This document shows, in pieces, positions 36,262 to 36,706 of a DNA stretch of 64,000 nt. The translations under genes and the position numbers were made by a program. The DNA comes from Escherichia coli. GTDB lineage: Bacteria; Pseudomonadota; Gammaproteobacteria; Enterobacterales; Enterobacteriaceae. The stretch lies in assembly GCF_036507355.1 (NCBI RefSeq), contig NZ_AP027877.1; one strand, written 5' to 3'. How positions within the stretch are numbered: the stretch's first letter is position 1; every line of letters starts with the position of its first letter. The notes below the pieces were generated by a model. That model searched no databases. It was not told the origin of the DNA and saw nothing but the letters and a program-made list of their open reading frames with translations.

Positions 36262-36618
36262 AGTCGCTGCCATTTATTCAGATAAAGAGTGCGTGGATGG
36301 TAGCAGAATTTCGCTTTGCTTACCGCCTGTTGTTAAGTGATTTGATCGATGGTTGTTAATGATGTCAACGATGGCGCAAAAAATGCCCGCTTTTGGTGCG
36401 AGCTGCGTCAGAATGGCGCAGTAATTTCCAGTAAATTTCGTCAATGATCACAATTCCAGAATTATATTTTACTTCTGCATAACATTGCGTTTTTTATTCT
36501 TTTTATTCACCCACATCGCAAACGTATTCACTTAATATGCACTTTAAATGCATATGGTTTGGTTATAACTCCTTGATTTCCAGTTAGCCTCCGCGGTTTA
36601 TGCACTTTTATCACTGGC

Positions 36619-36634
36619 TGGCACGAACCCTGCA
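36619..36634 (+). promoter_or_regulatory. Sigma54 (-24/-12) promoter of the ast operon
   Basis: TGGCAC-GAACC-CTGCA matches the sigma54 consensus TGGCAC-N5-TTGCW; lies about 75 bp upstream of the astC ATG. Confidence 0.8.
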
Positions 36635-36706
36635 ATCTACATTTACAGCGCAAACATTACTTATTATTAACATATAAATAACGAATTATTTACTGTAGAG
36701 GTCGCT

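Follow-up and report, generated by a model that had tools for sequence, protein, structure and literature searches.

The sigma-54 promoter astCp2 and the overlapping gene junctions of the Escherichia coli astCADBE operon

The astCADBE locus, its gene junctions and its end

The window, by which we mean the whole 64-kb stretch of DNA that was analysed, contains an Escherichia coli chromosome locus (100% match to E. coli) in which xthA lies divergent from the astCADBE operon. Gene coordinates were taken from the PGAP annotation of an identical strain, combined with a sequence check of the window, and are collected in Table 1; the same annotation gives spy as the next gene after astE. The segment 36250-36760 shares 100% identity with strain EC1515; of 5426 complete E. 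coli genomes, 5424 contain it, in each case between xthA and astC, and for the xthA-astC intergenic region as such the identity among the E. coli genomes listed is 98.4-100%. Among the 5425 places that match the segment, two fall in records labelled plasmid rather than chromosome. The spacer between the two divergent genes measures 445 bp. Elsewhere in the window, the small RNA ES036 (CssrF), at 45282-45324 on the minus strand, is the sole Rfam match above the gathering score (42.9 bits against a cutoff of 37.6).

Table 1. Features of the xthA-astCADBE locus, in window positions; distances marked with a minus sign are relative to the predicted sigma-54 start
Feature	Position	Strand	Remarks
xthA	start codon at 36261	-	PGAP, identical strain
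NtrC-like dyad 1, TGCCCGCTTTTGGTGCG	36384-36400		centre -253; candidate enhancer site
NtrC-like dyad 2, TGCGTCAGAATGGCGCA	36404-36420		centre -233; 20 bp from dyad 1
Block AAATTTCG-N5-GATCACA	36433-36452		nearly invariant; between NtrC-like dyads and ARG-box-like DNA
ARG-box-like cluster I, GAATTATAT and CTGCATAA	36453-36491		about -192 to -154; consensus scans and alignment
ARG-box-like cluster II	36515-36564		about -130 to -81; consensus scans and alignment
IHF-core-like element AATCAAGGAGTTA (WATCAANNNNTTR, 0 mismatches)	36566-36578	-	centre -73; between enhancer and promoter
TTTATGCA (36597-36604) and T-tract	36597-36616		TTTATGCA invariant in alignment; adjoins -24 element upstream
Sigma-54 core promoter (astCp2)	36618-36634	+	-24 TGGCAC 36619-36624; -12 TGCA 36631-36634
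Putative sigma-S/sigma-70-family -10, CTACATT (C(-13) and TACATT)	36637-36643	+	directly 3' of sigma-54 -12
Predicted sigma-54 start	36645	+	canonical geometry, C of GC (36633) at -12
Published transcription start (G)	36650	+	PMC3415461 Table S1; 57-nt 5'UTR
Shine-Dalgarno GAGG of astC	36698-36701	+	conserved; end of AT-rich 5'UTR
astC, succinylornithine transaminase, 406 aa	36707-37927	+	PGAP
astC/astA overlap ATGA	37924-37927	+	ATGA in 15/16 species
astA, arginine N-succinyltransferase, 344 aa	37924-38958	+	PGAP
astA/astD overlap ATGA	38955-38958	+	ATGA in 16/16 species
astD, succinylglutamate-semialdehyde dehydrogenase, 492 aa	38955-40433	+	PGAP
astD/astB overlap ATGA	40430-40433	+	16 species: ATGA 9, 14-nt overlap 5, 1-nt overlap 2
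astB, N-succinylarginine dihydrolase, 447 aa	40430-41773	+	PGAP
astB/astE 8-nt overlap	41766-41773	+	16 species: 8 nt 8, 1 nt 1, 3-11-nt gap with own SD 7
astE, succinylglutamate desuccinylase, 322 aa	41766-42734	+	PGAP
Hairpin, 11-bp stem, partly U-rich tail	42739-42764	+	5 nt after astE stop; probable terminator

The original prediction held that all four internal junctions of the operon overlap, and they do: ATGA occurs at the first three and the 8 nt ATGGATAA at astB/astE. When the junctions were compared with those of 16 other species carrying a complete operon, the tight packing was seen to be ancestral in astC, astA and astD and drifting in astB and astE, a situation which is ordinary for enterobacterial operons. 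The overlapping stop and start codons are compatible with translational coupling along the message. The astD frame is open for a further 57 nt upstream (38898-38954), up to an in-frame ATG at 38898 inside astA that would give a 511-aa ORF. This start was rejected, since both the annotation and the conserved N-terminus with its ATGA junction (16/16 species) favour 38955 (MTLWINGDW).

A published internal start lies inside astD at 40122 on the plus strand, 308 nt before the astB ATG (PMC3415461 Table S1: K-12 1826591, 20 reads). The 51-mer given with it is identical to window 40072-40122 and includes TATGAT at 40110-40115, which points to a promoter inside astD from which astB and astE could be expressed on their own.

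At the other end of the operon, the hairpin that follows astE folds with -20.3 kcal/mol (z = -6.2), and 0 of 200 shuffles fold as well; it is probably the operon terminator, a function read from its structure and place. A generic terminator scan of 36200-43100 returned 10 candidates against 9.9 expected and missed this hairpin, because its tail is insufficiently T-rich for a simple scan. A minus-strand 'terminator' proposed at 36403-36385 was discarded, being the dyad of NtrC-like site 1.

The astC 5'UTR (36645/36650 to 36706) yields an RNA fold of -6.4 kcal/mol with z = +1.17, no better than its shuffles, and no Rfam match falls in the region; on these two grounds a leader RNA or riboswitch was rejected. 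Within this otherwise variable and unstructured leader, the short blocks TTAACA, AAC and TTTAC at 36667-36693 are invariant. Contact with a protein or an sRNA and enhancement of translation are possibilities for them.

The sigma-54 core promoter

A sigma-54 element of the form TGGCAC-N5-CTGCA had been predicted upstream of astC, and it is present in the sequence as TGGCACGAACCCTGCA at 36619-36634, on the same strand as astC and 88 nt 5' of its ATG. GG (36620-21) and GC (36632-33) are exactly 10 bp apart, the canonical sigma-54 spacing. The single deviation from the consensus TGGCAC-N5-TTGCW is in the -12 block, which opens with C in place of T; the same substitution is found in the bound sites of argT, norV and glmY (PMC4591121). 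Canonical geometry places the predicted start 19 bp 3' of the motif centre and 62 nt before the astC ATG, and both the same start rule and the identical 62-nt distance are reported in Table 1 of PMC4591121.

A scan for TGGCAC-N5-YTGCW over both strands of the window found this element as its sole match. The motif alone is weak evidence, because its chance expectation is 0.26 per 64-kb window and at least one match arose in 22 of 100 shuffles. Such figures would suit a reading in which the -24/-12 match is a product of chance, or a sigma-54 site that never fires, as with many intragenic ChIP-seq sites, and the operon is driven by the promoter at 36650 alone. It is placement rather than the bare motif that carries weight: the element is on the right strand, in a short spacer and 88 nt before the ATG, and the expectation on one strand of the 445-bp spacer, scaled from the window figure, is about 0.001.

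Conservation of the element was assessed in loci recovered through the DNA encoding AstC residues 7-14 (RENFDEWM), with one genome per species, so that the promoter did not serve as bait. Among 60 enterobacterial loci recovered, the 59 with enough upstream DNA were used, covering the genera Escherichia, Salmonella, Citrobacter, Enterobacter, Leclercia, Lelliottia, Kosakonia, Phytobacter, Silvania, Huaxiibacter and Pseudenterobacter. TGGCAY-N5-NTGCA was present in every usable locus (59/59), starting 87-89 nt before the astC ATG; two apparent outliers in distance were start-codon artefacts of the script. In the 58 aligned enterobacterial sequences, CTGGCTGGCA (36614-36623) and TGCA (36631-36634) are invariant, while the spacer between -24 and -12 reads GAACCC, GAAGGC, GATCGC, GCCCTG and others, with columns at 30-90% identity. 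Invariant flanks around a free spacer are the signature to be expected of selection on the -24/-12 contacts. This pattern, with orientation and distance right in all 59 species, argues against a chance or silent site, as does the presence of NtrC-like dyads at fixed distances upstream.

Published binding data point in the same direction. The 17-mer CTGGCACGAACCCTGCA (36618-36634) is letter for letter the motif of OS17, a sigma-54 ChIP-seq peak of E. coli K-12, which has its peak centre at 1830088 and its motif centre at 1830087 on the K-12 minus strand, has astC as downstream gene, scores FAT 7 and PSSM 11.3, and is marked as an experimentally confirmed promoter in EcoCyc (PMC4591121, Bonocora et al. 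2015). After conversion via the astC ATG, the OS17 motif centre corresponds to window position 36626, in the middle of the element, and lies 1 bp from the peak centre. Occupancy of 36618-36634 by the sigma-54 holoenzyme is assigned through this exact identity. Kiupakis & Reitzer reportedly described astCp2 in 2002 as the promoter of astCADBE in E. coli K-12 that depends on sigma-54 and NtrC; secondary sources credit them with an rpoN- and ntrC-dependent transcript in nitrogen-limited cells, beginning at about 36645. The element is thus the already known astCp2 of this operon: correct, well conserved and ordinary.

The predicted control of astCADBE by NtrC agrees with ChIP-seq and SELEX results and with the conserved dyads. 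By genomic SELEX, the RpoN holoenzyme and NtrC were both located on the astC/xthA spacer, and astC is one of the few RpoN targets listed there as confirmed by experiment (PMC8743547). In nitrogen-starved cells, NtrC ChIP-seq gave a peak at astCADBE that was described as direct binding (PMC4066584). The peak interval, 1830021-1830101, corresponds to window 36612-36692 and therefore lies over the core promoter and not over the candidate dyads (PMC4066584); this mismatch could be due to looping and limited resolution, or the dyad assignment could be off. The Salmonella orthologue TGGCACGAATGCTGCAAT is likewise bound by sigma-54 and was assigned to NtrC (ChIP-chip, PMC3844500). In reporter studies astCp is characterised as a weak sigma-54 promoter, which would favour a silent site, but in the same type of assay astCp responds to NtrC, which, like the EcoCyc confirmation and the two ChIP-seq results, speaks for a working one.

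The overlapping promoter and the upstream region

The accessible mapped start of astC is at 36650 and not at the predicted 36645, a further point in favour of a silent sigma-54 site. It is listed at NC_000913 1830063 (-) with 8 reads (PMC3415461 Table S1), and the accompanying -50..+1 sequence is identical to window 36600-36650. This position follows TACATT by 7 nt and the predicted sigma-54 +1 by 5 nt, and so does not fit the geometry of the -12 element. However, the cells of this dataset were grown in M9 glucose with NH4Cl (PMC3415461), and the sigma-54 assignment is not refuted by the mismatch because in ammonium-replete cells an NtrC-dependent promoter should be off. The start at 36650, which is not to be mistaken for that of the sigma-54 promoter, is presumably the start of an overlapping sigma-70-family promoter, the RpoS-dependent one. 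With the cross-species and binding evidence set against it, a chance or never-firing -24/-12 match is extremely improbable.

Dependence of the operon on RpoS has been reported (PMC1413537; PMC3590144), and CTACATT may serve as the corresponding sigma-S -10. Its hexamer begins 4 nt after the -12 TGCA, so that the two promoter footprints overlap. The heptamer reads CTACATT in 53 of the 59 species, ATACATT in five and CTACAGT in one, and ATCTACATTTACAG, the DNA directly 3' of the -12 element, is conserved nearly as well as the sigma-54 contacts. No match to a -35 element is present for this promoter. CTACATT and the start at 36650 agree with the sigma-S pattern C(-13)TAnnnT, in which transcription begins 6-8 nt further on and a -35 is weak or absent. 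A generic sigma-70 promoter scan of 36200-43100 returned three sites against 4.6 expected, none of which explains astC expression, and was set aside as uninformative. Directly upstream of the -24 element, the stretch 36597-36616 has its centre at about -42 relative to the 36650 start, and 36599-36616 is a weak ARG-box-like match.

The closeness of the two promoters raises the question of whether a parked sigma-54 closed complex on 36618-36634 occludes the sigma-S -10 and, as long as NtrC is inactive, puts a brake on stationary-phase expression. The -10 hexamer would lie well within the holoenzyme footprint, sigma-54 occupies the site without activation in mid-log cells in M9, a precedent exists for overlapping sigma-54 promoters that occlude (the latter two points from PMC4591121), and the sigma-54 and sigma-S-type elements are conserved together. 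Against this, the promoters may simply share space as common upstream activator DNA serves both, and the 36650 start is detectable where sigma-54 occupies the site, so that any occlusion would be partial at most. On balance we consider such a brake unlikely.

The AT-rich DNA upstream had been expected to carry both ArgR and sigma-S elements; the former remains plausible, in view of the ARG-box-like blocks at 36453-36564, and the latter does not hold, as the putative sigma-S -10 instead abuts the -12 element. Positions in this region are counted from the predicted sigma-54 +1 at 36645. Binding of NtrC to the spacer is known from the literature, and the two dyads listed in Table 1 are its putative sites, with exact boundaries, as for ArgR, that we infer from the sequence. 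Dyad 1 has three to four mismatches to TGCACC-N5-GGTGCA, depending on the degeneracy allowed in the consensus, and a dyad with at most four mismatches is centred between -252 and -254 in 58 of 59 species. Dyad 2 has three, and a comparable dyad (four mismatches or fewer) is centred between -232 and -234 in 56/59; its ends, TGC and GCA, do not change across the alignment, while the sequence in the middle of the dyads varies.

Two side observations concern the DNA around these dyads. A published xthA start (K-12 1830423, 29-nt UTR, 7 reads) converts to about 36290 on the minus strand, and with this start the divergent xthA promoter would be some 95 bp from dyad 1. In E. coli strain VL40 (L062 2748-3445), an IS1A is inserted in the xthA-astC spacer at the equivalent of about 36434, where it separates the NtrC-like dyads from the ARG-box-like and promoter DNA and displaces the presumed enhancer by about 0.8 kb.

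The nearly invariant block that follows the dyads contains a CRP half-site (TCACA) in its right half only. In 56 of the 59 species a CRP-like match with three mismatches or fewer has its centre at -200.5/-201.5, and PMC3590144, with reference to Kiupakis & Reitzer, names CRP as taking part in ast regulation; the block may be a contact for CRP. A full CRP site at 36437-36452 was rejected, since the match is confined to the right half and the spacing deviates by one.

ArgR sites consist of pairs of 18-bp ARG boxes placed 21 bp centre to centre. In cluster I, CTGCATAA reads CTGAATAA in most species. Cluster II contains the pentamers ATTCA (36526-30), ATGCA (36537-41) and TGCAT (36549-53), the last being TGAAT in most species, and between 48 and 57 of the 59 species have matches that begin at -130, -119 and -109. 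Two alternative 21-bp registers, -130/-109 and -119/-98, fit the cluster. The best single ARG box, 36526-36543, has three mismatches to the 18-bp consensus WNTGAATWWWWATTCANW, and the E. coli matches as a whole are weak, with three to five mismatches.

Between the ARG-box-like DNA and the promoter, an IHF-core match with at most one mismatch stands at the same position in 57/59 species; ATCAA and TTA are retained there, and the N4 is variable. No literature support for IHF at the astC promoter was found, and the accessible texts name ArgR as the accessory protein; a role of the element in shaping the promoter region is suggested by its sequence and position. These elements allow a reading in which the AT-rich blocks mainly bind IHF (36566-36578), Lrp and CRP (36437-36452), which would shape the loop in place of ArgR. 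The exact IHF core, the CRP half-site-like block, the report of astC as a direct Lrp-activated target and the weakness of the E. coli ARG-box matches all favour it. On the other side, the literature gives the accessory role to ArgR, with ArgR-dependent superinduction, and the pentamers are in most species the canonical ARG half-sites TGAAT and ATTCA. The two readings are compatible with each other, and we regard the replacement of ArgR as the main ligand as rather doubtful.

Proposed regulation and comparison with known systems

Taken together, it is very probable that astCADBE is expressed from a sigma-54/NtrC promoter and an overlapping sigma-S-type promoter as a five-gene mRNA. For this explanation, the dependence on sigma-54, NtrC, ArgR and RpoS is taken from the literature, and the coordinates, identity and conservation come from the present analysis. 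The sigma-54 holoenzyme would sit as a closed complex on the GG of the -24 and the GC of the -12 element. When nitrogen is limiting, phosphorylated NtrC at the candidate dyads, about 230-255 bp upstream, would loop to the promoter and drive the transition to the open complex, with transcription starting at about 36645. ArgR with arginine would act in an accessory role on the AT-rich DNA between enhancer and promoter, boosting expression (superinduction). On top of this arrangement, a sigma-70-family promoter of sigma-S type would use CTACATT to start at 36650 and provide stationary-phase and basal expression. A single mRNA would serve for the translation of all five genes, whose stop and start codons overlap or abut, and transcription would probably end at the hairpin at 42739-42764.

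Two further ideas concern elements described above and may go beyond the published promoter map: the IHF core at -73 could help to bend an unusually long NtrC loop, and the parked sigma-54 could throttle sigma-S transcription. We offer them as speculative and improbable, and either may have been described already.

The importance of the locus beyond annotation is small; a textbook nitrogen-regulated promoter and operon were correctly recognised from the sequence alone. What the analysis adds is a phylogenetic footprint with candidate NtrC, ArgR-like, IHF-like and CRP-like elements, and a sigma-S-type -10 nested against the -12.

The closest known system is astCp2 of E. coli K-12, which is the same locus in a different strain: the 17-nt motif, the 51 nt of 36600-36650, the spacing from the astC ATG and the order of the genes are all identical, and nothing of substance differs. 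The astC promoter of Salmonella Typhimurium (STM1303) has the orthologous position and the same -24/-12 elements, and its TGGCACGAATGCTGCAAT differs from TGGCACGAACCCTGCAAT here by two spacer substitutions. With glnAp2 and glnHp2, which are classic NtrC-activated sigma-54 promoters, the astC promoter shares the -24/-12 core, tandem upstream NtrC dyads, which at astC are candidates, and activation by looping. Unlike at those promoters, the enhancer candidates of astC, at about -233 and -253, lie at a much greater distance upstream, the accessory protein is, according to the literature, ArgR rather than IHF, and the promoter is reported as weak and is overlapped by one of sigma-S type. As an operon, astCADBE resembles translationally coupled operons with ATGA overlaps in having three ATGA junctions and one of 8 nt, the first two being kept in 15-16 of 16 species. 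It departs from them in the last two junctions, which drift to 14-nt and 1-nt overlaps or to short gaps with their own SD; because of this drift among species, overlap of the ast junctions is not essential.
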